A stretch of 52,412 bases of DNA from Piedraia hortae CBS 480.64 (lineage: Eukaryota): positions 62,001 through 114,412 of the forward strand of contig MU006006.1 of the NCBI GenBank assembly GCA_010093745.1. Reading direction: 5' to 3'. The notes beneath the pieces were generated by a model that saw only the letters and a list, made by a program, of their open reading frames with translations, did no database searches and was not told the DNA's origin. Below, in pieces: positions 14,033 through 39,384 of this stretch (position 1 is its first letter; the number at the start of each line of letters is the position of its first letter). The position numbers and the translations under genes were made by a program.

Positions 14033-17000
14033 CTAGACTCCTTGCACCTTTCTATAGCTCGGTGGTTTAATTGTTCTGTGGATCCATTTGCCTCCCGCAA
14101 CGGGGATCAAACTCGCCGCGCCAATGGCCACACATCTCCACACAAACGCCACAGTCACCAAATATCCCAGATCAAAGTAGTCTCCAAGCGCAGGAAAGCT
14201 GCCTAGAAACAGCAGCATTGTGCCGAGTATGCTTACGATCATGACCGGATGCCATGTCGTTATCTCAACCGCGACCATGAAGATCTCATTCAGCACTAGC
14301 ACAGTGTACGAAACAGCGACTAGCTTGTTGAACGGCGCTTTCTCACCCAATAAAAGACTCGCGCCTCCCTGAATTATTAGCCCTTGGTAAAGGGAGATGG
14401 CGACCCAGCCAAAGAACGATCGGTAGCTGAGACTCTTGCCTAGAGTAAGCTCGCGATACAGTTCCGGGTACAGCTCTGCGAGGTTCTCATCAACATCACG
14501 ATCGAGAACCAATGAAAACACGGGCGCCATGGTGTACACCGTTGCGTAGCCAACGAGAAGCCAGTCCCGGTATAAGGCCACCGGCTCGAAGTGTGAGGAA
14601 ATGGAGTAGACTGTTTGGCAGACGGAGATGATCAGGCCGCGATGCATGACGAACTGTGCCAGCTTCGCAGACCGTTTGTAGCTGTTCCGGCCATGCCAGA
14701 GCAAGAGCTTTGTAAGAAAGGAGAATTGGGTCACACTGAAGTCGGCGGCTAGAGAGGCTTGACGACCTTCTTTGCCGACAATGCCGACGCCGACGTCTGC
14801 CGCTTGGATCATGGATACGTCGTTGCCTCCGTCACCGATACAGGCTACTCGCTTGCGGGTGTGACTTCTTATGAGGCTTGCGATTTCGGCCTTTTGTGTT
14901 GGTGAGCACCGGCAGGCGATTACGCTGGGCATCTTAACAGCTGCCGAGATGAATGCGCCGCTGTGGTAGGTTAGATAGAGGCTGAGACTTTGCCCATCAA
15001 TCAACAAGGCCGAGGTGGGTCGGTTGTGCAGGATGTGAAGTGCATCCAGGGCGGAGTCTTTCTGCGTAATGCCTGTGATTGTGTGAATATGTTGCCCTCT
15101 GCTGACGAGTTTAGAAGCAATGGCCACGCACCGCGCGGTCTCAACTTTGTCGCCTGTCAGCATCCAGATTTTGATGCCCGCATTGCGGAGGAGCTCTAGA
15201 CTGGGCTTGACGTTGGCTTGAAGTTTGTCTTCCACACCCGTCACGCCGAGGAGATCAAGGTCTTTCTCCAGATGATCGCTGACGACTCGTGCTTGAGTCG
15301 CTTCACGGTCTGTGAGACTGAGGGAGGCGCTGGTGTATGCACTGCTGAAAGCGGCGTATTGATCCTTGCTTAGAGCCTTGCGACCAACGACCAGCGTACG
15401 GAGGCCTTCACGAGCCATGTTACTCGTTTCCTCGTCGAGCCAATCGTTTGCAGCAACGATACTAGACATGATGGTATCGGCACCTTTTTGGAGAAAGAGA
15501 ATGTCACCCTCGCCATCGGTCTGATGGAAACGCACGATGATACCCATTCGTTTGCTTTCAGAGGTGAATGGAAAGACATTGAGAACATCCACCTTGACGA
15601 TGATATTGCCGCTGTGAGAGGATTGTAGTGTAATAGTCTTACGGTCTCGGTGGGCGAGACGCAAACCAACGCCCTCTGTCCACTGCACAATGGCAATCTC
15701 ATCTGGGCTACTTGCCTGGTAAGTAGTCACTTGCTGACCATCTTCCTCGCTGGTCGTGGGCGTTACGTTGTGACAGAGAGCGAGAGCAAGGACAACGTTC
15801 CTTATACGCGTGCTGATCTCGCGTTTGGTGCGGGCCATGTTGCCCAGAGAGCCCATGCCGTTCGATGGGGTAAAGAGGGAGCCACCAGCGTCGTCCATGG
15901 CGAAGGCTTGCTTGATGTACGTGCTCACTTCTTCCATGGCATCGCCGCCGTAGCTGACGGTGCCCACGTGCAGTTTGCGCAGTTCCATCTCATTCCTGGT
16001 CAAGGTTCCCGTCTTGTCGGTCAGGAGATAGTCAATCCGGCCCAAGTCTTCTGGAATCGTGCTTGTTCGGACAACAGTCCCAGGAATGCCTGCATCGCGT
16101 TGGATGAAGCGAGCATAGGCTGATTTGCCCATGTCCAGATTCACCCTCAAGCTAATGGGCACGATAGTGCTGAAGAGAATAAGGAAGCGCATAAAGTCAA
16201 CGTACCACTTGCGTTTCTCAGTGCTCTCAACGCGCTCTAAGAGCACCAGCAGCAAAGAGAGTGCGGCAGTGAGGAAGCAAAGGATCTTGGTGAGGTTGTT
16301 AATTTCGTTCTCCAACAGTCCAGTTTTGGAACGGGACGCAGATGTAGACAGAGCAGCACGGGTTTGCGGACCCGTGTAGACTACAACTGCATGAACTGTC
16401 GAGCTGGAGGCCAAGACTGTGTTTGCCCACGCAGTGTTGTCAATGGTCAGCGGGCCAGACTTGTCCTGATCCGACCCCTTCTGCTCCACGGTGCCTGCAA
16501 AGGCAGTCACGTTCTTCTCTGGTTTCCCAGCCATGATCTGCAGGCGCACATATTCGCTTGGTGGCAGCGTCTGCGCAAGAGGCGATGCCAGTCGCAACTT
16601 CCAATCTGTCTCTCCATCAAGCTGATCAGTGCGGATGAAGGCTTCTCCACCACCACTGGGATCGTCAGAGGTTGTATTGTTATCAAGTTCAGCGGCATCA
16701 GCGGCTTCTTGTTCCAGCTTTGGGGCTGATTCGAGGGCCGAGTCACCAGAGAAGCTCTTGAGTATTACAACATCAGCAGGAACTCGCTGCTCCTTGGACA
16801 GAACCACGATATCTCCCACTTTCAGGTCTCTGCTGGGCTTCATGGCTTCTGAGACTGATGCGGAGGGCACATGGCCATCCAGAGTCTCGTCCGAGTCTCT
16901 ACTAGACCCTCGGCGAACACCAAAAGTCAGGACTTTGTACATCTCGCTGTTGGCTTCTCTGTCTCTCTTGCGTCTGTAGATGTCATCGTGAGCCTCCTTT

Positions 17001-17620
17001 CCCAGGGTAATCATGACAACAAACGCCAGAGGCGCAATATAAGTGGACAGGTAGCCGATGCGCAAAGCCGGAAAAATTTGCGAGAGGGCGACCAACAAGA
17101 AATAAAGGTTGAAAAAGAACTTGAATTCGTTCCAGAGCGTCCTGGGGAGGAATGATAGGGGCGTATATTTGGCATTGCTGACGGCATTTGGGGGGTATTT
17201 GATGGCTTGTTTTTGGCCTACTAGGACGTTGCGGCTTGAGCCAGAGCCGGGTTCATCAATAGGCAGCCTTACAGACGTTTTCCTTCCAACAAAGGGAAGG
17301 TACCGCCTTAACCCATATTCTTGGGGCTCAGAGCCTCGGTCGGCCAACAGCGGGTTGTCCTCCGCGCCGATGCACGAGCTCACTCCGGAGACTCGTGCAT
17401 TCTGATCATCATCGTCCCCTACCAGCGACTCCAGTTCCTCAGCATCCTCGTCTCTCTCCTTCTTCATAAACCCCAGGCGGCGCAACGGGATGCGGTCGAG
17501 TTTCTGCGCAGGACTCTTCCGCCCTCGGGAGGTCAGCGGATCCAGATCATCAAGGTCGCTGCTGTATCTTGCATCTCTGGAATCGCCTCGAGGGCTGCGG
17601 TAGCCAGCTAACATTGTCAT
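14033..17620 (-). CDS. NEO1: P4-type ATPase phospholipid flippase
   Basis: 1195 aa. Motifs DKTGTLT, TDQLDGETDWKLR, WMLTGDK, GDGGNDVSMIQAA and GKEGRQASLAADF, typical of the Neo1/ATP9 class. Confidence 0.95.
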   Translation of the reverse strand: MTMLAGYRSPRGDSRDARYSSDLDDLDPLTSRGRKSPAQKLDRIPLRRLGFMKKERDEDAEELESLVGDDDDQNARVSGVSSCIGAEDNPLLADRGSEPQEYGLRRYLPFVGRKTSVRLPIDEPGSGSSRNVLVGQKQAIKYPPNAVSNAKYTPLSFLPRTLWNEFKFFFNLYFLLVALSQIFPALRIGYLSTYIAPLAFVVMITLGKEAHDDIYRRKRDREANSEMYKVLTFGVRRGSSRDSDETLDGHVPSASVSEAMKPSRDLKVGDIVVLSKEQRVPADVVILKSFSGDSALESAPKLEQEAADAAELDNNTTSDDPSGGGEAFIRTDQLDGETDWKLRLASPLAQTLPPSEYVRLQIMAGKPEKNVTAFAGTVEQKGSDQDKSGPLTIDNTAWANTVLASSSTVHAVVVYTGPQTRAALSTSASRSKTGLLENEINNLTKILCFLTAALSLLLVLLERVESTEKRKWYVDFMRFLILFSTIVPISLRVNLDMGKSAYARFIQRDAGIPGTVVRTSTIPEDLGRIDYLLTDKTGTLTRNEMELRKLHVGTVSYGGDAMEEVSTYIKQAFAMDDAGGSLFTPSNGMGSLGNMARTKREISTRIRNVVLALALCHNVTPTTSEEDGQQVTTYQASSPDEIAIVQWTEGVGLRLAHRDRKTITLQSSHSGNIIVKVDVLNVFPFTSESKRMGIIVRFHQTDGEGDILFLQKGADTIMSSIVAANDWLDEETSNMAREGLRTLVVGRKALSKDQYAAFSSAYTSASLSLTDREATQARVVSDHLEKDLDLLGVTGVEDKLQANVKPSLELLRNAGIKIWMLTGDKVETARCVAIASKLVSRGQHIHTITGITQKDSALDALHILHNRPTSALLIDGQSLSLYLTYHSGAFISAAVKMPSVIACRCSPTQKAEIASLIRSHTRKRVACIGDGGNDVSMIQAADVGVGIVGKEGRQASLAADFSVTQFSFLTKLLLWHGRNSYKRSAKLAQFVMHRGLIISVCQTVYSISSHFEPVALYRDWLLVGYATVYTMAPVFSLVLDRDVDENLAELYPELYRELTLGKSLSYRSFFGWVAISLYQGLIIQGGASLLLGEKAPFNKLVAVSYTVLVLNEIFMVAVEITTWHPVMIVSILGTMLLFLGSFPALGDYFDLGYLVTVAFVWRCVAIGAASLIPVAGGKWIHRTIKPPSYRKVQGV

Positions 17621-17917
17621 TCTTCATTGTCTTCGTCTTGGTCGAGGCTGTGACGTTAGTGACACATCCGGGGCGCGGAACGGGCCGCTGCACAATTCCA
17701 ACCCTAGCTGCGAACGTCTCCTGCAGCCCAGAGCGAGTGAGGTGGACGACAAGGGACGAGTTTTAGCGTTTGGCCACGTTTCCAGACTCCGCTATCCGGT
17801 CTGCAGCTGTGTCTATTGCTGTATCGTCCCAAATTCCGGATCCGAGACTCGGCCGAGGCCCGGCCAGTTGGCAACTGCCGGCCAACATCCAACGTCCAGC
17901 ACAACCGCCACGAGAAC

Positions 17918-20900
17918 ATGTCGCACGCCGGCTCCACTCATTCTGCCAGCGCGCATCCACTCGAGACATTACATTCCGAGGAAATCCATCCGAGCACGAC
18001 CGACGGTATCGAACAGACGACGGCGGCGGCGGCGGCGGCTGTGGCGGAGGAGGCGGCAGCGCCGTGGCCGCCCCAGGACACGCTGCTGGATCCTGCAAAG
18101 GAAACAGAAGACGTCCCAATACATGGCGGAGATGTGCCAATCGCGGCGGAGAATGCGTCGGAAGCGCTGGGACTGGGAATCAGACAGTCACCGGACGCCG
18201 TGCTTTCCGAACCAGCGGCGCATTACGACCATCAGGGCGCTGTGCCAGACATGGAGGCGGCGCAAAGCGAAGAGCCCGATCTTCCGCTGCTTCAGGACGC
18301 CGAGGAGCCGACGCGGAGGGAGACTGAGAGCCGGACATCACCGGTTCGGCCTGCAGCCATGGGGGAGAGCTTTCCAGACCTCAACGAGATACCAACAGCG
18401 AGCGCAGATGGGGCCAACGACGACGCTTCCATTGCCGAGAACTGGCCATCGTTTGACGACGACGAGACTTTTGGGGAGCTGCTGGGGGACGACAGTCGGC
18501 CAAAGGAAGCTAAGCCCGAGTCGCCTTTCCTGGACGAGGACCAAGATCTGGCCGCCCGTTTTGAGGCTGCTCTAGACATGGATCTGTTGGAAGGTGACAT
18601 TGACGATGTTCCGCTCCTGGACGAGGAGGAAGAGGAGCCGCCGGCGCAGACGGAGCCCCAGCAGACGCCGCGGCAGCCCTTGTCTCACACCCCAAGCTGG
18701 CCGTATGCATCCCGTTCGCAGTTCATTGAACAGAACAACAGCCGCTCCTCGGCCACGCCAGACACGGGGCTGTTTGACATCTACAACACGCAGCCGTCCC
18801 CCGTTGCGGTCAGACCAGCGCTCAAGCAGGCGCAGAGCTTCGTAGACAAGTCCAAAGGCGAGTATCAGTCGCCTTATGATCTCCCCATGGAGATTGTCAA
18901 GCCTCGAAAGCGGACGATACAGCCACAGCGGGCGTCGATTCCCACTCCTCCACCTCGAACTAGCAGCTTCAGCGGCAGCTTCCCGCCCAAACAAGTGGCC
19001 AGTCCAGCAAGGACCACAACGCCCGCTTCTCGCGCTGGCAGCAACTTCTTTGAGGAAATGCCGATTCCAGCCAAGCCTCGTACGCGTCCAGCTGCTCCAA
19101 CAGCCCAGCCATTCAGTGCTCCAGGTTTTGCTGCTCCTGCGAATAGGGCACTTCCCTCGCTGCCGCTGCAGAGTCCGGCCTTTTCCCCGACCATGCTGCC
19201 TGGCCCCATTCCCGAATCTGCCACTCCTCCTCCTCCTCCCAGAATGACCAACAAGTACGCAGCTCCCTTGCAGCAGCCAATCAGTTTTTCCCAGCCGCCG
19301 AGACCCCGAACGCAGTCTCCGGCTGCCATGGTCAAGCAATCCAAATATGCGGCGATGCCCATAGAACGGCCTACTTCGGCTGTTGCTCGCCCAAGCACAG
19401 CTACGACGGTTACAAAAGCTCCTGCATCTCACAAGCGTAGGCCTTCTCGTCCCATCAACTTCATTCCACCAGCCGACGAGCGTGGCGAGGACCCTCTGCA
19501 GAGGTGGAAGGGACAACCAATCTTCAGCTGGAACTCGACTGGTATGATCGTGCACACCTTCCCCAAATACACTCCTGCTTGGGACAGCCATGGTGGGCAC
19601 TCAATGAAGTGCCATCCCGACTCCATAAACATCACAGACGCCGCAACCTTTTGTCCAATGGACGGTCGGGATGCCAAATTTCCCGGTCCTCTTCCTGCTA
19701 GAAGCAAAGGGAAGAAGAAAGAAGTCATGGGCTGGATGGCAGAGAAGATCAACGATTTGGAGCGGGCCAAAGATCATGCCATGTTGGAATACAACCTCCC
19801 TGACGAGCTTAAGAAGCGAACTGAGGAGAAGTTGGTTCTGTGGAAGATTGTTCAGTTGTTTGTCGACAACGACGGCACGCTGGAGAACAAGCCCAAAGCC
19901 ACCGAGGACGTTAGAAAGATCCTACTGCCTAGTCTCGACCAGACGAACCTTGCTGCCATGCAGTCACCCGATTCTGCCCTGTCATCAGAACCCGTTGACA
20001 GGTCGTTGGTAGCTCAGCTCCGTCAGGCCCTTTTGCATGGGGACCGGGAACGTGCCGTGTTCCTCGCCGAAGAGAAGAAGCTTTGGGGCCATGCCTTGTT
20101 GATTGCGTCCGTCACGGGAGCAGAAGCTTGGAAACAAGTCGTTCAGTCGTTTGTCCGCACCCAAGTAAAACCAGTTGGGAGCGATGCTAGAAGCCTTGCT
20201 GCCGTTTACCAGGCCTTCGCAGGTAACAGCCAAGAGTGCGTCGATGAGCTGGTACCGCCGAGTGCAAGGGCGGGTTTCTCGCTGGTCAACAAAACAGACG
20301 GAAGCACCACGGCCAATCCCCTCGTCGGGCTGGATCAATGGCGCGAAACGCTGGGTTTGATAGTCAGCAACCGGACGGCAAACGATCCGGCGTCTCTGAT
20401 CAAATTGGGCACGATGCTAAACGACTATGGCAGAGTAGAAGCCGCTCATGCTTGCTTCCTCTTTGCCCGTGCCTTTGCCAAGCATTCTGGTGCGGACGAT
20501 CCCGAAGCCCACTTTGTGCTTCTTGGTGCGAATCATAGGAATCCCGCCGAAAGCTTGGGCAACGACTTGGACCCCGTTATCCTGACCGAGATCTATGAGT
20601 GGGCCTCCTCCTTCGCCCCTTCGACCGGTGCATCTTATACTCCTCACCTGCAGTCCTACAAGCTCATGCACGCTCAACAGCTGGCTGCCTTTGGCTACAA
20701 GACCAAGGCTCTCACGTACTGCGATCATGTTGCCCAAGCGCACACCTCTAGCACCAAGACAAGTCCGTACTATCATCACAGCTTTGTCCAGGCCGTAAGT
20801 GATATGCGCGCGTATCTGTCCAAAGCCCCCCAGGACGGTAAAAGCGGCTTCCTTCCCTCCATCAGGGGCGGTGCAGCCACCTTGTTGCAACGCTTCATCG

Positions 20901-22324
20901 AGGGCGGCGAGGAAGAGAGCGAGCAAGACGACCGGTCTCGCACTGGCATCCATGAAGGGCCTTTTGGGATGGTCAACGCACCTGCAGAAGTCTATGCCAC
21001 TTCCGCCATTCCGATTCAAGTCGCAACTCCCCCGCCACAAACAGCTTCTTCGGCAGCAACAGCTGCAGCCGGACGCTATACTCCACGCGAAGGTCGCTAT
21101 AACGCACCGATACAGCGCGCCTCGTCGGTCATACCGGCGGGCTACCATCCTCAAGAGCGGAGTCGATTCAATCTCCCAGAAGCCAACGGACCACAGCCAC
21201 GTTCGGCTTCTGTATCTCGCATTGCAAACTCCCGGTACGCACCAGCAAACCATACACTCACCCCATCACCGCTTGTCGAAGCTCGATTGGGCATTCCCCG
21301 TCCGCCAGCAAGCCGCGCGGGATCAGACCATGGCTTCTCCTCCCGCCGTGGCTCCAACCAGACGCTGGACAGCTACCAGCCCTCGCCCAGACTCGCTCAG
21401 GAACAAAGCCCTTATATGCAAGCCTCCCCATCTCTACAACCTTCACCAACCTTTCAACTGGCATCGACAGAGGAGGAGCCCGCGGCCGAGACCGCAGAAA
21501 CAAATGTTGCATCAGCAGAGACGGGTGGCTTCCAACCACTCAGTCCCGACAAAGGGTACACTCCCTACGAACCAGAACCCTACAACTACACTCCCTACGA
21601 ACCGGAGCCCGAACCGGAGCCCGACACAGAACCCGAACCAAAGCCCGAAGCCCCTCCCAAACCCAAAGAGCGGAAACACGACGACGCCTTCCTCGCCGCC
21701 GTGGCGGCCGACAACGCCCGCAGCGCCAGTCCCTCCAAAGACACCAAGTCCGCGGCCACAAAATCCGGCGGCGGCTGGCTCAAATGGTTCAAATCCGACC
21801 CTTCGGCCCCGGAACCCAACAAACCCATCAAAGCCAAACTCGGCGAGGAAAGCTCCTTCTACTTTGACAAAGAACTCAACAAATGGGTCAACAAGAAAGG
21901 ACCCACCGAAACGGAAGAGAAAACTACAAAACTTGCTCCCCCGCCCATGGCCCGCTCCGCGAGCAATAACCCCGCTGTAGCAGCTAGAGGGGCTGTCCCA
22001 CCCGTTAGAGCCGGGTCCGTTCCGCCAAGAACTATGCCTCCTGCCTCGGGTGTGCCGCCTGTGCCGGCGTTGCCGGGTATGGCTATGCCACCGCCCTCTG
22101 GGATACCCTCCGGGATACCCTCCGGGCCGCCGTCAGGACCCCCCTCGAGAGCGGATACCCCTGCCTCCGTGGCGTCCGCACCACCGGGGAGGGCTGCTGC
22201 CGCTGCGGCTGCGAAGGGGGAGGATTTGGATGAGTTGCTTGCTGGTGGGAAAAAAGCGGGGACGGTTAAAAGGAAGAAAGGGGCTGGGAGGGGGAGGTAT
22301 GTGGATGTTATGGCTAGGGATTAG
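17918..22324 (+). CDS. SEC16: COPII coat assembly protein Sec16
   Basis: Acidic/Pro-rich N-terminus. Central FPGPL...KKKEV, LLHGDRERAVFLAEEKKLWGHALLIAS and LTEIYEW. C-terminal KAKLGEESSFYFDKELNKWVNKK and RYVDVM. First ATG at 17918. Confidence 0.92.
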   Translation: MSHAGSTHSASAHPLETLHSEEIHPSTTDGIEQTTAAAAAAVAEEAAAPWPPQDTLLDPAKETEDVPIHGGDVPIAAENASEALGLGIRQSPDAVLSEPAAHYDHQGAVPDMEAAQSEEPDLPLLQDAEEPTRRETESRTSPVRPAAMGESFPDLNEIPTASADGANDDASIAENWPSFDDDETFGELLGDDSRPKEAKPESPFLDEDQDLAARFEAALDMDLLEGDIDDVPLLDEEEEEPPAQTEPQQTPRQPLSHTPSWPYASRSQFIEQNNSRSSATPDTGLFDIYNTQPSPVAVRPALKQAQSFVDKSKGEYQSPYDLPMEIVKPRKRTIQPQRASIPTPPPRTSSFSGSFPPKQVASPARTTTPASRAGSNFFEEMPIPAKPRTRPAAPTAQPFSAPGFAAPANRALPSLPLQSPAFSPTMLPGPIPESATPPPPPRMTNKYAAPLQQPISFSQPPRPRTQSPAAMVKQSKYAAMPIERPTSAVARPSTATTVTKAPASHKRRPSRPINFIPPADERGEDPLQRWKGQPIFSWNSTGMIVHTFPKYTPAWDSHGGHSMKCHPDSINITDAATFCPMDGRDAKFPGPLPARSKGKKKEVMGWMAEKINDLERAKDHAMLEYNLPDELKKRTEEKLVLWKIVQLFVDNDGTLENKPKATEDVRKILLPSLDQTNLAAMQSPDSALSSEPVDRSLVAQLRQALLHGDRERAVFLAEEKKLWGHALLIASVTGAEAWKQVVQSFVRTQVKPVGSDARSLAAVYQAFAGNSQECVDELVPPSARAGFSLVNKTDGSTTANPLVGLDQWRETLGLIVSNRTANDPASLIKLGTMLNDYGRVEAAHACFLFARAFAKHSGADDPEAHFVLLGANHRNPAESLGNDLDPVILTEIYEWASSFAPSTGASYTPHLQSYKLMHAQQLAAFGYKTKALTYCDHVAQAHTSSTKTSPYYHHSFVQAVSDMRAYLSKAPQDGKSGFLPSIRGGAATLLQRFIEGGEEESEQDDRSRTGIHEGPFGMVNAPAEVYATSAIPIQVATPPPQTASSAATAAAGRYTPREGRYNAPIQRASSVIPAGYHPQERSRFNLPEANGPQPRSASVSRIANSRYAPANHTLTPSPLVEARLGIPRPPASRAGSDHGFSSRRGSNQTLDSYQPSPRLAQEQSPYMQASPSLQPSPTFQLASTEEEPAAETAETNVASAETGGFQPLSPDKGYTPYEPEPYNYTPYEPEPEPEPDTEPEPKPEAPPKPKERKHDDAFLAAVAADNARSASPSKDTKSAATKSGGGWLKWFKSDPSAPEPNKPIKAKLGEESSFYFDKELNKWVNKKGPTETEEKTTKLAPPPMARSASNNPAVAARGAVPPVRAGSVPPRTMPPASGVPPVPALPGMAMPPPSGIPSGIPSGPPSGPPSRADTPASVASAPPGRAAAAAAAKGEDLDELLAGGKKAGTVKRKKGAGRGRYVDVMARD

Positions 22325-22729: not shown

Positions 22730-25700
22730 TTAAAAGGTGCCTTTGCCCGTGAAATAGAAAACAGTAAAACCAGTCTCATAGTTGGGAACAATCATTTTTC
22801 GCCCGCACGAGAACCAATCTTCACCGAATCGTGGCTGATCAGGGAGCTTGAGAACCTTCCGACTATTGACAGTGATCCACTGGTCTTCATCTTCATAATC
22901 GCCTTCTAAACCCCAGATTTGTCGGCCATGGAACATCGAAGATGATCTTGTCGAGGCGGAAGAGTCCTCCTGCGTTTGGGGCTGGGCAGCTTTGTTGGCT
23001 ACTAGCCTGTCCACGACAGGCAGGAACGTTGACGACACAAAGCGACCATCGATAAGTATCGAACCACCATAACGGCCCGGATCTATTGTGCGCACAATGC
23101 ACGCCTTTTCAATGTCCCATTCACATATGCCATTCTTGAGGTCATAAACGTAGAGCATCCGACCGTCTGCTGAGAAACATGCCTTAGACGCAAAATGTTT
23201 AGAGCTCAGTACCAGCGGGGTTTGTGACTCCGGTCCCCAAATCCTAATTATGTCATCGATTGATCTCGATGCAAAGTTCTGCCCATCGGGAGAAATCGCT
23301 ATATCATTGACGGATGATGTATGACCCGTGAATTTTTCTCGCAGAACTCCACGTTCCAGATCAACAGCCCATATCTGGCCGTCGTAGAAACCGCAAAGGA
23401 GTGTTTTGTTGTCTGGGGATAACGCAAGAGCTTTAACTTCGCCTGGTCTGTCTTTTAACTCTCTCAGTTCATCTGCATCCATGTTCCAAATCAAAAGCGT
23501 ACTGTTGACTAGGGAGGCAACAACCACGAAACGACTGTCCGATGAGATCAGGATCTGCCTGTAATCGTATGTATAGTCATATATAAGCCTGTGATCTGTT
23601 AACCGCCGTTCGCAAATTCGCGTTTCAATGTTCCAAAGGCTGAGCTGGTTTCCCTGAGTCCATAAGGCGAGTGATCGTCCATCCGTTGACGGTGCTACGA
23701 TAGCGTTGTTAGTCGGATGCTGCGGGCTCTTCAAGGCTAGATCCACGTCCAGCTGTATGATTTGTCCAGTCCAATACCCCGCCCAGATTGTCTTCCCGTC
23801 GGGAGATAAGGTCATGGCTGTGACGCCGCTTCTCAATCGCAGTTCCATCGGCTCTTGTTGCGTTTGTAAGTCGTAGAGATAAAGACTATCCCCGTCACCA
23901 AAAAGAACTTTCTGGCTGTCTGGCGTAACCATGAGAGAATTGACATCAGGAAGATCTTGCAGGATCTGGTCAACTTCGTGGGTGGTGCAGTGAAACACCG
24001 ATATCGTGCTGTTTTCCAAGTGATACGCAACTCTCGTGCCAGAACAAAAGACAACGAACTTGCGGTTTGGCGAAATGGCGATGCTCTCGATATCAGTACC
24101 AACTTGGCATATCCTCTTATGCCCAGCTTGTGGGCTCCATTTCCAGATGTCTGTGGATCCCGACACCAGTGTCTCGCTATCCGACGAGAACGCCATGCAT
24201 TCCACTGAAGAGCTGTGACCCTCAACCACCTGTCCGGCGTTTTTGTCGGCGTCCCAGATGTAAATCTCGCCGCTCTTCAAGCCCCAAGCGGCATATCGGC
24301 CGTTCGGAGAGACGGAAACGCAGTTTGCATTGCTTGGGAGTTCGAGATCAATTCGTCTGGCGTCGTCTTCCAAATTCCACCTCCAATGACTTCCCCGCGA
24401 CGCGGCAATGACCACAATGTCTTCTTCAGGGAACGCCGAGGCGACCTCGTGAACATTGTGATATGGCATTCCAGTTTCCGCACCTTTTTCTTCGGTGCCG
24501 CTTTCAACATCCCATAGTCGCACTGTCCTGTCATTGCCAACGGTCACAAGCCGTCTCCCGTCGATTGAAGGCGTTATCGACAGTATATCATCAGTATGCC
24601 TCCTCAGGGTTTGCAACTCAAAGCCCCAATCAGTCGCGGCTGGCGGCCAAACTTCCATGTCACTTCTGAAGCTGTTTCGTACGATACTGTTGCTCGGCGC
24701 AAAGGCCAGTGCTGAGAGATATGTCTGAAGCGGTGCATCGCTGATCAAATCTCGATTTGCTGGTACCCATCTCAGAGCATCGGCGATAAAGGAGTGTAGT
24801 CTGGGCGATGATTGTGGCTGCTCAGGGTTAGGCATTTTCTTGGCAGACTGAAACAGAGGCAATACATACGCTGATGGCCCTTTGCAGCTGCTTCAGGCAT
24901 ACTATCATTTCCCCAAGCTTGTCCAGCCACGCCATTGCCTCTACCCAATAAAGGAGACACGCGCGTACAAAACGATCTACTTGTCCGCCATCTTCGATTG
25001 CCTCATTGCTATGAATCGCATGGCCGGTCCAGTAGCGGCAGGCGTACTGTACTGACTCGGATATGTGCTTTTCGACATGCTCTGCGGACACATCTATGCG
25101 TTCCGTTGCTGGATCTTTCTGCTTGCAGACATCGCGGCCAAGCTTGTTAGTGAGCAAGTCTAGACATCTCTTTAGGAGGATACCATGAGTCTTGCCTTTG
25201 TCAATTGAGAACTGGAATTTGTCCTTGAGATTGGGATCCACAAGGAAGTCTCTGAAGGATTCATGATAAATCCGCACCGTGGCTCGAGAGCCTGATTTCA
25301 CCTCCTTTTCGCTCGGGAAATCGATTACCGAACTCAAGGGTTTGAGAGCATTCGGAACAACCATGTTATCTCCTTCCCCCAGCAAATCCGTCAGCGCCGG
25401 AATTGAGAGGGGAGCACGCAGAACGGCAATTGGCTCGATGGTTCGCTTGAAGTGGCCGAGCCACTTTGGATCAGCCCTAGAAGCCTGCTCGAGAATGCCT
25501 GAATAGATGCAGTTCAGCCCTTCTGAGCCAGTGAAGTTGAGCCGGTCGACCCATTCCCGAAGCTGCCTTCGTGGATCATTGCTCACTTCTTGGAATATCG
25601 TGGAGGCTGCAATGAACAGTGGCTTTGATATGTCAACAAGTTTGTCGACAACGCTTTCCCCTGGCCAGTCATCCTCGAGCTCGTCATAGCTGGACTCCTT

Positions 25701-27400
25701 CCTGCTTTGCTCTCGAAGCCTTCTCAGTTCATCGTGACAGAACAACCTCAAGTCATCCTCGATAGTACTCGATTGCCAGTGCTCAAGCCTCTCGTGCTGA
25801 AGATCCTTGCGCCCCATCTCGCCGAGCGCATCCCCGACCTTGTTGCCAGACCGGCTCGTCAAGAAAACTCTTAGATTCATGGAGCTTTGTGCACGAAGAC
25901 TCGGCCAAAGAGTCATGGCATGGCCTATCGCTCCCCAGTCCTCGCACTCGTCCAGAGCATCGATGACAATCGCCCTAATATATGTCGCGGAACCCGTCCT
26001 ATACCCTGAAAGCGGCCCTTTGATAAGCGTGTCGAACTGAGTTGTCAGCGGCCTTACATTCACCGGAGGGGAGTCTTTGGAGGCGGCAGCAATCTCGTGG
26101 CTGATGCTGGGTACGAAGTCTGCCATTTGACGGGCAATGGTGGGAAACAGAATGCAAGCGCGGCCCAACTCACCATGGCCACGCTTGAAGAAGAAGCTTC
26201 CCACCAGGTACCCTTGCTTCGCCAGTTCATCGGCAACGGTTAGAGCAATTGTGGACTTGCCCGTTCCGGCCTTTCCAGACAGCCAGAAAACTCTCTGATC
26301 ATTGACTGTGGTCGCCCAGTCCAGGATCTTCTGTCTGATCTGCACCCGGGTACCGTCCAGACATAGCCGCAGCTCGCCAATGTCGTCAGCATTACGATAG
26401 TTTATGGAGTCGTAAGCTGCCCCAGCAGCTGCCTGTAGAGCACTAAGATCCAGCGCTTGTTGATCGCCTTGGACTCCTCGATTGATCTCCTGCTGGGCCT
26501 TCTCCAGCGTGTTCAGCTTTTGGTTGACCCATGCCCGCTGCTTCTCAGAGACCTCGCGATCGACAGCTCTTGCATGATATTCAACCGTCTTCAGCATCCC
26601 ATTGTGATCGGTTTCGAAGTTTGGTATGGCCACACCAGTCAGAGAATGTACAACACGTTCCCACCGGTTCATCTCGCAAGCGTTTCGGGCGTGCGCGACG
26701 AACTTCAGAATGAGGGCGTACAGTTTTACCATGTTGTGATACAAGTTCCCAATCGTGGGCGTGCCATCGAGGCGGCCGTATATGTCAAAGTATACGTTTA
26801 GGAGGTAGCTGGTGTCTAGAGCGATTTCGATGCCCTTTAGGATCGATTCCCCCTGATGATGGACCTTTTGAGCAGTCTACGAAGTGTTACATGGGTTTGC
26901 AGTGACTGAACAGCTTAACAGCAACTTACCATCAACAGAAAGCGAATGCCGGCCCACGGTAGGCTAAGAACCTCTGGTTTAACATTCGTTGCGACGTCAA
27001 CTACTGGCGCAAATTGCAGGATTTGACAGGCAATCTTCCTCATGCTGGCAATCCATTGATTGGGCTTTCTGGTCTGATTTTGACTTCGCAAGGCAAGCAC
27101 TTCAGCTGTGTCTCTTTCATAATCACCATCGGGTTGGAGTTGCTCCTCAACCAACCTGCGGTCGTCAGGTGAAAGACCAACAAGGGCATCAAGCATCATC
27201 TGCCTCCTATCTCGAAACGGGCTGTTTGAAACCATCGGTGGAGGCAAAGACTGGACAGGCGCATTTTGTAGCTGCAAGGGCTGTGAAGGCAGAGCAATGG
27301 AAGCGGAGGCCCGCGACGTGGAGTTGAGTGAAGCGGCAATTTGCGATTGTGAGGTCTGCCATGCTCCATCCAATTTTCTGCGCTTCGACTCTGCCGGCAT
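22730..27400 (-). CDS. NACHT-WD40 (NWD/HET-E-like fungal NLR) protein with helical N-terminal domain, ~1521 aa, 3 exons
   Basis: Exons 27400-26930, 26876-24870 and 24817-22730 join in frame across GT-AG introns 26929-26877 and 24869-24818. Walker A GKAGTGKST, Walker B IVIDALDEC, HESFRDFL, YACRYW, and many WD40 repeats. Start codon inferred. Confidence 0.9.
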
Positions 27401-35380: not shown

Positions 35381-36879
35381 ATGACATCTGCTTCGGCCAT
35401 GATGAGCTCCAATATTGAGATGGAGTCTGCTTCAGAGAGAATGGACTTTGATCCTTATCATATCCCGACGGAGATTGTGATAGAAATCATCAAACACGTG
35501 GGTAAAAACCGTGCAACGCTACTCAACGTCATCAAAGTCAGCAGTGTATGGTTCGATATTGGCACGTCGTTCCTGTGGCGTGAACCTCCGATCCATGCCC
35601 TCATCGCGCTTCCCCCAGCCCGACGGCAGTACTACGCTGACAAGATTGAGCTGCTCTGCACATCAGAAGAGGAAGGAAGCCAGGGTCACTACGAAACCAA
35701 GAACTTGACCTTCCCCCGCCTCGAATGGCTTTCAATCGACCACGGCGTGGATGTATTCCCCATAGGACAATATCTCCAGTCCAGCCTGACATTCCTGAGT
35801 TTCGCCGGTGGGCGGCCAGAGGAGGATGTCCTGGCACTGCTCGCAGTCAGATGCAAGAACATGAAGCAGCTATCGATCGACGACGTGCCTTCGTACTGGG
35901 ACACGGATGGGGTGATTGCAATGCTGGACCATTTCAAAGATCTGGAGTGCTTCCGCATGGGCCAAAGACTCCCCCAACACATAGACGGGGGCCGACTCAT
36001 CCTCTACCTAGCCAACCGTCCCAAAATATGGAGCCTCAAGGCATCGTGCGACAACATTGGCTACCATGCCTTGAGTCGAGTTGCAGCCCTGGGCGAAAGG
36101 ACACGAATATACCCCAACATCCGTGGTCTGGAGCTAGACATTGACTGGGATGCAGTAACGCTTATCCCTGCTTTCTCCAAAAACATCATCGCGCTGAAGC
36201 TGGGCATATTCGGCCGACCACAAGCCGCCAACGTGTTCGCAGTGGTAGGCACCATGATTAGCGTCAAGATTCTCGAGCTACATATAGACAACGGCCAGCC
36301 TTTGCAGAGGCAAGACCTACGAAACCTCGCCAAGCTCAAAAACCTGCGTCGGATGATCATATCCATCCGCAACCACCCTGCCACGTACGACGCCCTCGCC
36401 GACACGGATTTTACCCACCTCTTCCTCTCCCTTCCAAACCTAGAAGGCATAGCCTGGCACGCGGGGGAAAATTTCCCTCTCAAGGCCTTCCTGGCTTTAG
36501 GTCTGCACTGCCAAAGACTGCATTTCTGCGAAATGAGCGCCCGCATAGATTTGCTCTCCTTGCAACAATCGCCCAGGATATGCTTCCCTAGCCTCGACAC
36601 ACTTAAACTCAGCTCCGGCGTTTCGGAGGAGAATATCAACGTGTAAGTCTCCCCAGCTAAGTGCCGAAAACTAAACTGATAAATTTGTTCAGCCGCAACA
36701 TCGCGAAAAAAGTCGTCGATGTTCTACAACTGCACGCGCCATGTCTCTCGGAGCTGGAATTCGAGGACAAATCTCACCAGGCCTCCGCTGCGGTCTTGAG
36801 GGCGTGGAACATTGCACCAGATAACGGTCTCGTGCATTGCAACTCTGACCCCGAAACGGTCTATGAGGATTGGATTTAG
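35381..36879 (+). CDS. F-box/LRR-like protein
   Basis: N-terminal IPTEIVIEIIKHV...LLNVIKVSSVW (F-box-like), followed by LxxLxL repeats. Intron 36643-36692 joins the two ORFs in frame. Confidence 0.75.
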
Positions 36880-37284
36880 GGACTTGGTTGAGGTTGATGC
36901 ATATACTGTTGAAAATGGATGTTACCTCTACTATCTTTCGTGGATGGGCTCGTTGCGTATGGGGCGATCGGTGTCGATTAGCTTTGATGGGTAGGGGTAT
37001 GGGTTGAAGTCGTCGACGGGCAGGTAGATGCTGATCCCCACGAATGCGCGAAGCGTAGGCCCGCTTTATGGACATCTTGACTTCAGGGAAAGGTAGTGAT
37101 TACAGGAGTATACCTGATCATCAATGTAGGGTGATATCCACCACATAGTTCTCTGCGCGCTTAGATCTAAATGCACACTCTCGTCGATAAAACTACCCAC
37201 CGTTAGGATTACCTACTCCTCCCCCAAGACACAGGCAAACAGATAACAAAAGGGTTATCGAGAAAAAAAGGGGGGTATGACAAT

Positions 37285-38088
37285 CTAGCAACAACCACCG
37301 GCGCTACCCGACTGGACACCCTGGCCCTGGCCGACCTGAACAGACGGCTTATTGTTGATTGGCGTATTGCCCATGCGCTCTTTGATCTGGCGGGCCATAG
37401 TAAGAAAAGCCTGTTCAACGTTACTGGCGTTCTTGGCCGACGTCTCGAGGAAAGGAATGTTCAGGCTGTCTGCGAATTCCTGTAAGAGAGTCAGTTGCTG
37501 GGCCGCTATGTTTGTCTGCAACGTGCGTACCTTGGCTACGGTGTATTCAACAACCTTCTTATCAGTCATATCGCTCTTGTTCCCGACAAGCAGCTTATTG
37601 ACGCCCTCGGTGGCATAGCGATCAATCTCCTGAAGCCATTGCTTAACGTTGTTAAAGCTATCCATGTCCGTGACATCGTAGACAACGCAGATGCCGTGCG
37701 CGCCGCGGTAGTACGACGAGGTGATTGTGCGGAATCGCTCTTGGCCTGCCGTATCCCACTGTGTCTCCATCAGTCGCCGCATTTACAAATTGCTCTCAAA
37801 CTCACAATCTGAAGCTTTACAGTCTTGCCATCAAGCTCAATGGTTCTAATTTTGAAGTCGACGCCGATCGTCGAGATGTAACTCTCCGTGTATGTGTCGT
37901 CGGCGAACCGCAACAACAGGCACGACTTTCCAACACCGGAGTCGCCGATGAGGAGCAGCTTGAAGAGATAATCGTATCTGCCTCGGTTAAGCGTGCCAAC
38001 GCGTGGGCGGAAGCGGTTCACTCTATTGCCGTCAGTAGCGGGACAGGAAGAGGGCGGCGGGCATCTAGACTGACCACTCCGGATTCAT
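37285..38088 (-). CDS. YPT1: Rab1 family GTPase Ypt1, 201 aa
   Basis: Exons 38088-38078, 37977-37806, 37758-37531 and 37479-37285 give [22 protein letters not shown]...[10 protein letters not shown]...GGCC. Confidence 0.97.
37978..38077 (-). other. Putative spliceosomal twin intron ([D3,4]-type stwintron) in YPT1
   Basis: GTG + [GTCAGT...TACTGAC...AATAG, 52 nt, 38074-38023] + AGTGAAC...GCTTAAC...GCAG. Removing the inner intron creates a GTGAGT donor for a 48 nt outer intron. Confidence 0.75.
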
Positions 38089-38334
38089 GATTGCGGTGGA
38101 CTAGCCGGCGGGCAATGGATCGGCGGCGCTGTGTGGGGGTTCGCTAGGGGAGGTCAAACGTGCTTCTCCTTGGGTGGTCGTCGCATCAGCTGCGCCTGTT
38201 TCGCCACACCTTCCGTATTCGTCAACTCACGTGGGGACAAGGGTCACGTGAGACTTTCACAAGGCGAATGCGACTACAACGTCTACGAACTATCAATTTT
38301 TGAACGACGTAAAATCATAAGCTTCGTCTGCCTA

Positions 38335-39384
38335 TTATCGCCATGGAGGGTTTCCATTCTGCCCGCCATAGCTTCCTCCATAGCCCGACTGTCCATACTG
38401 CTGCCCAGGGCCGTAGTAAGACGAATATTGGCCCGGAGGATATTGATTGACCGTGTACGGTTGGGCCGCGAATGCGTTTTGTGGATGATGCATTGGCTGC
38501 TGACCGTAGCCTTGGGCACCGTACGCTGCATGTTGGCCGTACCCGTTTGAGGGCGTGTAATATGGTTGCTGTGCACCGTGATTATTACCATGATTCATCG
38601 ACACATGATACGCAGCACCTGGCTGAAACCCTGGCGCTGAAGCTTGAGGCTGACTTGCCTGATAGCTCGGCGGTGGAGCTTGGCCTGAGTAGGTGCCGGA
38701 GTTGTGACCGCTGTTAGAATACCCATAGGAGCTCCCACCATAGCTAGAGCCCGATGCACTGCCATGGGCTCCCTGGGTGCCGTGAACTCCCGCCTGGTTG
38801 TGTTGTCCGCTCGATAGAAAGGATTGCGCCAGTCCACCCAGCATGGCCAAGCCTGAGTTATTCTGGTGTTGACCGCTGGGACCATGACTGTTTGCGCCTC
38901 CGAAAACAGCAGACGCTAAGCCACCGAGACCCTGCTGATGACTGTTTGAATTCTTGTTCAGATATGCATTCATCAACGCACCCTGTTCCAGGTCAGGAGT
39001 CGTTTGATCAATGGCCAAAGAGCCTCACCCCCAGCCCGCGGTCTCCTTCTCCCATTCCCTTTGCGCCCTCTCCATCCAGGGGGGGCGCATATGGGTTGCC
39101 ATGGGCGGGAGTAGTCCCAGGACTGGGAACATTAGGTGCAGCCGATGTTGGCTTTTCCCACGTGGACCTTGCAGTGCTGATCTCAACAAAATAGTATTTG
39201 CGCAGCCTTGTATGACTTATAAGTAACAGCCTTATTGGGCTCAACAGCGGCTACTCACCTTCCATCCCATTGCGCAATCCTAAGTGCATCAGGACAGGTT
39301 TCGCACAAGGTTAAGTACTTACCAGCCAGGTGGCATGGGAGGGGGCGCCTTATCAGGCCCAGCGTCGGACGCGGTGTCCGCCAT
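38335..39384 (-). CDS. WW-domain, Gly/Gln/Tyr-rich protein (Wwm1-like)
   Basis: Splicing introns 39322-39280, 39258-39207 and 39028-38983 gives PPGWIAQWDGRLRKYYFVEISTARSTWEKP (WW domain), a DRGLG motif and a low-complexity tail. Confidence 0.8.

Follow-up and report, generated by a model that had tools for sequence, protein, structure and literature searches.

How is the first intervening sequence of YPT1 removed in Piedraia hortae CBS 480.64, in one step, as its GT and AG ends would allow, or in two? Here we analysed this gene in a window of 52,412 nucleotides (nt) from assembly GCA_010093745.1 (contig MU006006.1, positions 62,001 to 114,412 of the forward strand). YPT1 lies on the minus strand of the window, and all coordinates below count from the first letter of the window. 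The 100-nt gap has formal GT..AG ends and so leaves gene models looking normal, and a requirement for two steps would go unnoticed. We consider it likely that the gap is a [D3,4] stwintron that is removed in two steps, that is, an outer intron whose donor is split between its third and fourth nucleotides by a complete inner intron. This geometry was proposed in an initial annotation made from the sequence alone, and it now stands on the exact mature junction, the abnormal hexamer at the start of the gap, and four of four informative orthologues; the regulatory switch that the annotation derived from it found no support.

Anatomy of the gap and its mature RNA

The coding sequence of YPT1 runs through ATGAATCCGGA to A38078 and resumes with ATACGATTATCTCTTCAAG from A37977. 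The 100 nt between them read, in order, GTG, then GTCAGT...TACTGAC GGCAATAG, then AGT GAAC...GCTTAAC CGAGGCAG. Two complete U2-type units are found here, an inner unit of 52 nt (GTCAGT/TACTGAC/TAG) and a fused outer unit (GTGAGT/GCTTAAC/CAG) that comprises 38077-38075 and 38022-37978, or 3 + 45 = 48 nt. The inner intron sits between G3 (38075) and A4 (38022) of GTG/AGT, and its branch element TACTGAC is a good match to consensus. Since AGT directly follows the first AG past the inner branch element, excision of 38074-38023 creates the donor GTGAGT. Among the first six bases of the gap, a further GT occurs solely at offset +4, so that only a 3/4 split of the donor is possible and the other [D] nestings are out.

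The mature RNA was determined from run X1, the single run found, which is RNA-like (flagged "RNA?") and whose assembled contigs were aligned to window positions 36900-38500. A 282-nt contig covers 38129-38078, then 37977-37806, then 37758-37723. Its joint 38078/37977 omits exactly 100 nt, with no ambiguity of placement and with GT..AG ends on the minus strand. Two further introns, likewise GT..AG on the minus strand, are skipped at 37805-37759 in the same contig and at 37529-37479 in a second contig. X1 depth is zero at 37980-38033 and in the intergenic bins at 38142-38249, and the bins that touch the gap are explained by their exon parts; X1 therefore behaves like RNA and unlike DNA.

The four exons sum to 606 nt and translate into 201 amino acids with no internal stop, and an in-frame TAG is located 15 nt 5' of the ATG. 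When exon 2 was compared with solved structures, the best matches were Rab1B, Rab1A, and Ypt1 (102-113 bits, E 8e-33 to 3.5e-29), with Rab8 (89 bits), Sec4 (78 bits), and Rab35 all below Rab1/Ypt1. The encoded protein ends in GGCC, and we take the CC end to be a prenylation site. These results agree with what the initial annotation had read from the minus strand: the coordinates and elements of the gap were all correct, the 52-nt inner excision does fuse GTG and AGT into the donor of a 48-nt outer intron, the predicted junction GA/A with the frame MNPEYDY is the one found in the X1 contig, and the identification as YPT1 is upheld by the top matches to exon 2 and the double-cysteine end. Its argument from size, that both units fit introns of 43-63 nt elsewhere in the window, holds for the two RNA-supported YPT1 introns (47 and 51 nt), whereas a window-wide census by chaining of open reading frames (ORFs) was too noisy to bear on it.

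In the route that we propose, splicing would begin by intron definition, in which U1 and U2 bring the strong inner donor together with TACTGAC, the branch element closest to it, and its acceptor. The 52-nt inner lariat would then leave, and G38075 would be joined to A38022 to form GTGAGT; the predicted intermediate junction, 38075/38022, would read ...CCGGAGTG/AGTGAACC.... In a second step, GTGAGT would be paired with GCTTAAC...CAG, and removal of the 48-nt outer intron would give GA/A. The order of these reactions, and their place as the main route, is what we infer. Removal of stwintrons from the inside out by intron definition has been established experimentally in fungi (PMC12403724, PMC5639578, PMC7138796, PMC6616335).

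Translation shows what the other possible products would encode. In the unspliced gap the reading frame stops after seven codons, and with the inner intron alone removed it stops after four. Splicing from the inner donor GTCAGT to the outer acceptor (97 nt out) gives GAG-TGA, or MNPE-stop, again after four codons. The initial annotation had argued that the alternative splice readings fail, and these stops confirm it. Use of the weak GTGGTC donor with the inner acceptor (55 nt out) would give an in-frame insert of 15 codons, a form absent from the X1 RNA-like contigs. Recursive splicing, in which the weak donor is joined to the inner acceptor and a donor is regenerated, was rejected, as it would leave an extra A and the observed skip is exactly 100 nt.

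Nested orthologues and rival routes

Read as one intron, the gap starts with GTGGTC, which has G at +4 and T at +5 and departs at both positions from the fungal donor consensus GURWGY given by the stwintron authors (PMC12403724, PMC7138796, PMC6616335). The control set comprised 24 simple introns of YPT1, drawn from eight related loci as well as the window. Position +5 is G in 23 of these introns, A in one, and T in none, and G does not occur at +4 (0/24). A second GTNNGY at offset +4 was likewise found in none of the 20 control introns tested. The sole control intron that lacks G at +5 follows ...VAK in locus L047 and has the donor GTACAA.

Related loci were sought in JGI metagenome contigs using 57 residues of exon 2, which returned 474 relatives; the best 80 were kept, the upstream region was viewed for all 80, and 17 were examined in detail. 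The junction AG/A-TAC-GAY is found in five of the 80 kept loci (L033, L038, L047, L048, and L058). Exon 1 is visible in four of these, and all four have ATGAAYCCNGA followed by nesting as in the window. Only 93 nt of upstream sequence are present in L038, with no exon 1 among them, which makes this locus uninformative on nesting. The general pattern in the four is GTR + GTNNGY...CTRAC (14-28 nt)...CAG + AGY. In L047, L048, and L058 the 5' triplet is GTG, CAG is followed by AGT, and the restored donor is GTGAGT; their inner donors are GTAAGC, GTACGC, and GTATGT, and their inner/outer lengths are 67/91, 65/80, and 183/78 nt, respectively. In L033 the triplet is GTA, the inner donor is GTGCGT, and CAG is followed by AGC to restore GTAAGC, with lengths of 69/85 nt. 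CTGAC or CTAAC lies 14-28 nt 5' of the inner acceptor in each of the four, and toward the outer end all of them carry another branch element and a YAG. The GTG-GT...AG-AGT type of architecture, for which the initial annotation had suggested aligning orthologues, is thus kept in all four informative diverged loci, and together with the window the 3/4 split and the AGT or AGC after the inner acceptor are present in five of five.

Among the nested loci, a stretch of ~123 nt of exon 2 has a nucleotide identity of 0.80-0.89 and encodes an identical protein, and the intron halves align at an identity of 0.26-0.69. Splice signals are kept while the surrounding intron sequence and length drift. In all five nested loci, no intervening sequence of YPT1 is longer than the complex one, whose halves fall within the simple-intron range of 47-110 nt except for the 183-nt inner intron of L058. 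As a test of chance, we made 20,000 dinucleotide shuffles per locus. An inner donor at +4 coincided with a branch point, YAG, and the restoring triplet in 0.00035-0.00135 of shuffles per locus (0.00045 for the window), and the internal 3' splice site with the restoring triplet alone arose in 0.007-0.040; because the five nested loci share ancestry, these per-locus figures are not to be multiplied. Judged from this comparison, it would be difficult to account for the retention of the internal signals without use of the internal sites.

Other searches added no further fungal cases. Among the 80 kept loci, no cDNA contig matched any of the four nested genomic loci at an identity of at least 88%, so the mature junction is confirmed solely in the window's organism. 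An exon 2 scan of genome contigs gave 20 loci, all prokaryotic or Asgard Rab-like and none fungal, and a pattern scan of viral contigs for the shifted acceptor junction gave 0 matches. Several features of the related loci were also observed. L038 has all three of its other intron positions in common with the nested loci, and at the exon level it is 88-91% identical to L058. An intron of 57-90 nt follows ...GVDF in L033, L047, L048, L058, L038, and L057; the window YPT1 has none there, and its exon 2 is uninterrupted at this position. In L058 (1740-2000), the inner unit holds a second CCAG/AGT at offset 113 with no branch-like element upstream, which may be an alternative inner acceptor or chance.

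The two-step reading has several points against it. The gap is formally GT...AG, so the mature junction alone also fits excision in one step. The outer branch element, GCTTAAC, is only a moderate match, poorer than TACTGAC. An RNA from which 38074-38023 alone had been removed was not seen; no X1 contig covers any part of the gap, and because contigs drop rare forms, the absence of gap-retaining contigs is uninformative on intermediates. The four nested orthologues are metagenome contigs, and with the window they share ancestry and do not make five independent trials. The main rival, which we regard as unlikely, is a one-step route in which the gap starts with a GYNGYN tandem donor, U1 sits on GTCAGT, and cleavage occurs at the upstream GT (38077). 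A single 100-nt lariat would then form via the distal branch point, with the internal branch point and acceptor idle. GTGGTC does fit the GYNGYN motif and the gap does end in AG, alternative use of such donors is documented in several species, and in human STAT3 cleavage at a tandem donor is independent of the exact position of U1, which also counts against the two-step reading. The mature junction is explained as well by this route as by two steps. However, it leaves unexplained why a branch point, YAG, and a restoring AGY are kept in five diverged loci (by chance, 0.007-0.040 per locus), and why, in every gene, the gap exceeds all other intervening sequences in length when almost every half is of normal size. 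It also needs near-exclusive use of an upstream site with G at +4 and T at +5, seen in 0/24 controls, and use of the downstream site leads to a stop after four codons. GYNGYN donors have both GTs in frame and give isoforms that differ by 3 nt, whereas here the downstream site gives MNPE-stop and the upstream junction alone was seen.

Two other explanations concern what the nesting is for, or whether it is there at all. The initial annotation had suggested that mis-splicing to a four-codon product could act as a switch. On this reading, YPT1 output would be tuned by the balance between two-step splicing and direct, one-step splicing of the inner donor to the outer acceptor, the latter yielding a four-codon frame that is probably degraded. 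That route joins two canonical sites and gives MNPE-stop, GAG-TGA or GAG-TAA geometry is present in five of five loci, and comparable mis-splicing has been described for [D1,2] stwintrons (PMC12403724). Against this, the X1 contigs show solely the correct junction, and the stop follows automatically from the GAG-TRA geometry, so its conservation says nothing on regulation. We found no support for the switch and consider it very unlikely. It is scarcely credible, finally, that the gap is an ordinary long intron with chance intron-like signals, or that another first exon is used. Short splice-like motifs are common in GC-rich sequence, and the ORF-chaining census of the window gave 592 intron candidates, most of them spurious; yet RNA-like contigs establish both the first exon and the junction, the ATG is preceded by an in-frame TAG, the arrangement arose in 0.00045 of window shuffles, and the nesting recurs in 4/4 orthologues. 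Two-step removal of a [D3,4] stwintron is the reading that we retain.

Features and neighbours of the locus

The features of YPT1 and of its first intervening sequence are collected below.

Features of the YPT1 locus, from 5' to 3' on the coding strand
Feature	Position	Strand	Basis or remark
5' leader, 41 nt, without ATG	38089..38129	minus	RNA-like contig; contig ends at 38129, then adapter letters
In-frame TAG upstream of ATG	38103-38101	minus	sequence
ATG start codon	38088-38086	minus	sequence
Coding part of exon 1, ATGAATCCGGA: codons M N P, then bases 1-2 of the Glu codon	38078..38088	minus	sequence and contig
Complex intervening sequence, 100 nt, gone from mature RNA	37978..38077	minus	contig joint, GT..AG ends
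GTG, nt 1-3 of the split outer donor	38075..38077	minus	sequence; in-situ hexamer GTGGTC
Inner intron, 52 nt	38023..38074	minus	equivalent element in L033, L047, L048, L058
Inner donor GTCAGT	38074-38069	minus	sequence
Inner branch element TACTGAC; branch A 38032, 9 nt from 3' splice site	38037-38031	minus	sequence
Inner acceptor TAG (end of AATAG)	38025-38023	minus	sequence
AGT, nt 4-6 of the split outer donor	38020..38022	minus	GTGAGT forms after inner intron removal
Outer branch element GCTTAAC; branch A 37987, 9 nt from 3' splice site	37986..37992	minus	fits YTNAY
Outer acceptor CAG	37978..37980	minus	sequence and contig
Exon 2; first base completes the Glu codon, ends ...KLQI	37806..37977	minus	sequence and contig
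Intron 2, 47 nt, donor GTGAGT	37759..37805	minus	contig
Exon 3	37530..37758	minus	contig and translation
Intron 3, 51 nt, donor GTACGC	37479..37529	minus	contig
Exon 4, coding part with stop; protein ends ...GSAGGCC	37285..37478	minus	sequence and translation

The window is an ordinary-looking fungal chromosome arm, with genes for a P4-type flippase, Sec16, an NPHP3_N and WD40 gene, a carnitine acyltransferase, tubulin, an aconitase-family protein, and Ctf4/Mcl1. The P4-type phospholipid flippase and Sec16 (together at 14036-22321) and YPT1 (37285-38088) are three secretory-pathway genes within ~25 kb, and their proximity may be coincidence. As a lead, the Atlas clusters nearest to the Ctf4-like protein are dominated by Ascomycota, and one of them is named SepB. 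On the minus strand, 22733-26744 holds two ORFs in head-to-tail order, one of NPHP3_N (NACHT) type and one with WD40 repeats, and ORF chaining suggests that a 52-nt GTATGT...CAG intron at 24869-24818 joins them; the pair looks like a fungal NLR-type gene.

Closer to YPT1, a 3634-nt X1 contig runs from exon 3 (37721) through the 3' end of the gene and beyond 36900, toward a convergent F-box-like gene at 35381-36642 on the plus strand, for which the Atlas taxa were uninformative. It is possible that the two genes overlap at their 3' ends, though a contig over two genes is no proof of a single transcript. Directly upstream of YPT1, the ORF at 38335-39024 (minus strand) is rich in Gln, Gly, Tyr, and Ser, with low complexity and a prion-like composition; one X1 contig spans 38284-38500 and so includes the 3' end of this ORF.

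Intron position and relation to known stwintrons

The position of the nested intron can be compared with that of ordinary Rab1 introns. In L015, L020, L026, L027, and L057, the junction is AG/C-GAY, 3 nt further downstream than in the nested loci. Exon 1 was found in four of these five, each with one ordinary intron; L020 shows no exon 1 within the 741 nt available. The exon ends and donors read GAT-TA/GTAAGT in L015, GAG-TA/GTTTGT in L027, GAA-TA/GTATGT in L057, and GAG-TA/GTGAGT in L026, where the single intron spans 611 nt. The L026 protein starts with MSTMNPEY, which we take to resemble animal Rab1. All four ordinary introns begin after nt 14 counted from the ATG of MNPEY, which is where the inner intron of the nested form starts; the inner unit therefore sits at an intron position that is old and widely shared. 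Relative to that position, the exons of the nested form are effectively joined 3 nt upstream, and a simple intron at the shifted position was found in none of the sampled loci.

These positions raise a more tentative proposal, which we regard as possible but somewhat doubtful: that the YPT1 element is both the missing [D3,4] member of the donor-split series and the trace of an ancient Rab1 intron position that has moved by 3 nt. On this view, the ancient intron would survive as the inner unit. Three bases that were once exonic, GTR (the final base of the Glu codon and bases 1-2 of the Tyr codon), would now open a younger outer intron, and the 3' end of that younger intron would supply a new A-TA. 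If this is true, a gene that lost precisely the inner unit would keep a simple intron located 3 nt 5' of the original site, and the published model of a 1-nt shift through stwintrons would be extended to a whole codon. The YPT1 nesting offers a concrete test of whether nested introns move the position of an intron by one codon. Since YPT1 is a highly conserved housekeeping gene and the intron position is common with animal-like Rab1, it should be straightforward to follow the element from one fungus to another.

Stwintrons are the clearest evidence for splice-site pairing across introns in filamentous fungi, and they serve as models for intron origin, movement, and loss. The types listed as demonstrated by the group that defined stwintrons are [D1,2], [D2,3], [D4,5], [D5,6], and [A2,3], with [D6,7] and [D7,8], which lie next to the donor, in the wider sense (PMC12403724, PMC7138796). 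The initial annotation had listed [D1,2], [D2,3], and [D5,6], which are indeed the split-donor types in PMC5639578, PMC7138796, and PMC6616335; [D4,5] is added by PMC7138796. Nearly all known stwintrons are [D1,2], according to a 2025 paper, and other types are rarely met (PMC12403724, PMC7138796). No [D3,4] type appears in the introductory sections and selected passages covered here of PMC12403724, PMC5639578, PMC6616335, PMC7138796, PMC9024468, PMC5587772, and PMC8469720. The same seven papers do not mention ypt1, six of them do not mention GTPase either, and five also lack rab1 and GTP-binding; a search of the full-text literature on YPT1 introns and on fungal nested introns found nothing relevant.

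The YPT1 element can be set beside each of the systems that it resembles. The GYNGYN donors, as in human STAT3 exon 21, likewise have two GTs 3 nt apart at the 5' end of the intron. They give two in-frame isoforms in one step, whereas the downstream site in YPT1 leads to a stop, and unlike them YPT1 has a complete internal 3' splice site and a restoring triplet that are conserved. The [D1,2] stwintrons of Hypoxylaceae and of Aspergillus lipS belong to the same class and follow the same logic, in which mis-splicing from the internal donor to the external acceptor leaves bases behind (PMC12403724). There the remainder is 1 nt and shifts the frame; in YPT1 it is 3 nt (GTG) and brings an immediate stop. 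[D1,2] elements can also spread as sequence-similar copies, while the YPT1 element is single and conserved in position in the present data.

For the shift of intron position, the nearest parallel is the 1-nt shift by [D1,2]/[A2,3] stwintrons (NAR 2017, PMC5587772), in which a nested intron likewise puts the effective junction beside a constituent intron. In YPT1 the offset is 3 nt, and there is no alternative [A]-type route to the same mRNA. For the architecture itself, the [D2,3] stwintron of bioDA in Sordariomycetes (Flipphi, Fekete, and co-workers) likewise has an internal U2 intron that splits an external donor, in a different gene and after nt 2 rather than after nt 3; its authors report experimental characterisation of that type, whereas in YPT1 the intermediate is unseen. 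The [D4,5] stwintron in a reticulon-like gene of Lipomyces lipofer and the [D5,6] stwintron in rtnA of Pezizomycotina are rare donor-split elements removed from the inside out (PMC6616335, PMC7138796). Their external donors are split as GUGA/GU and GURWG/Y, respectively. The corresponding donor in YPT1 is GUG/AGU, split at 3/4, and with a [D3,4] case the donor-split series would have no missing member.

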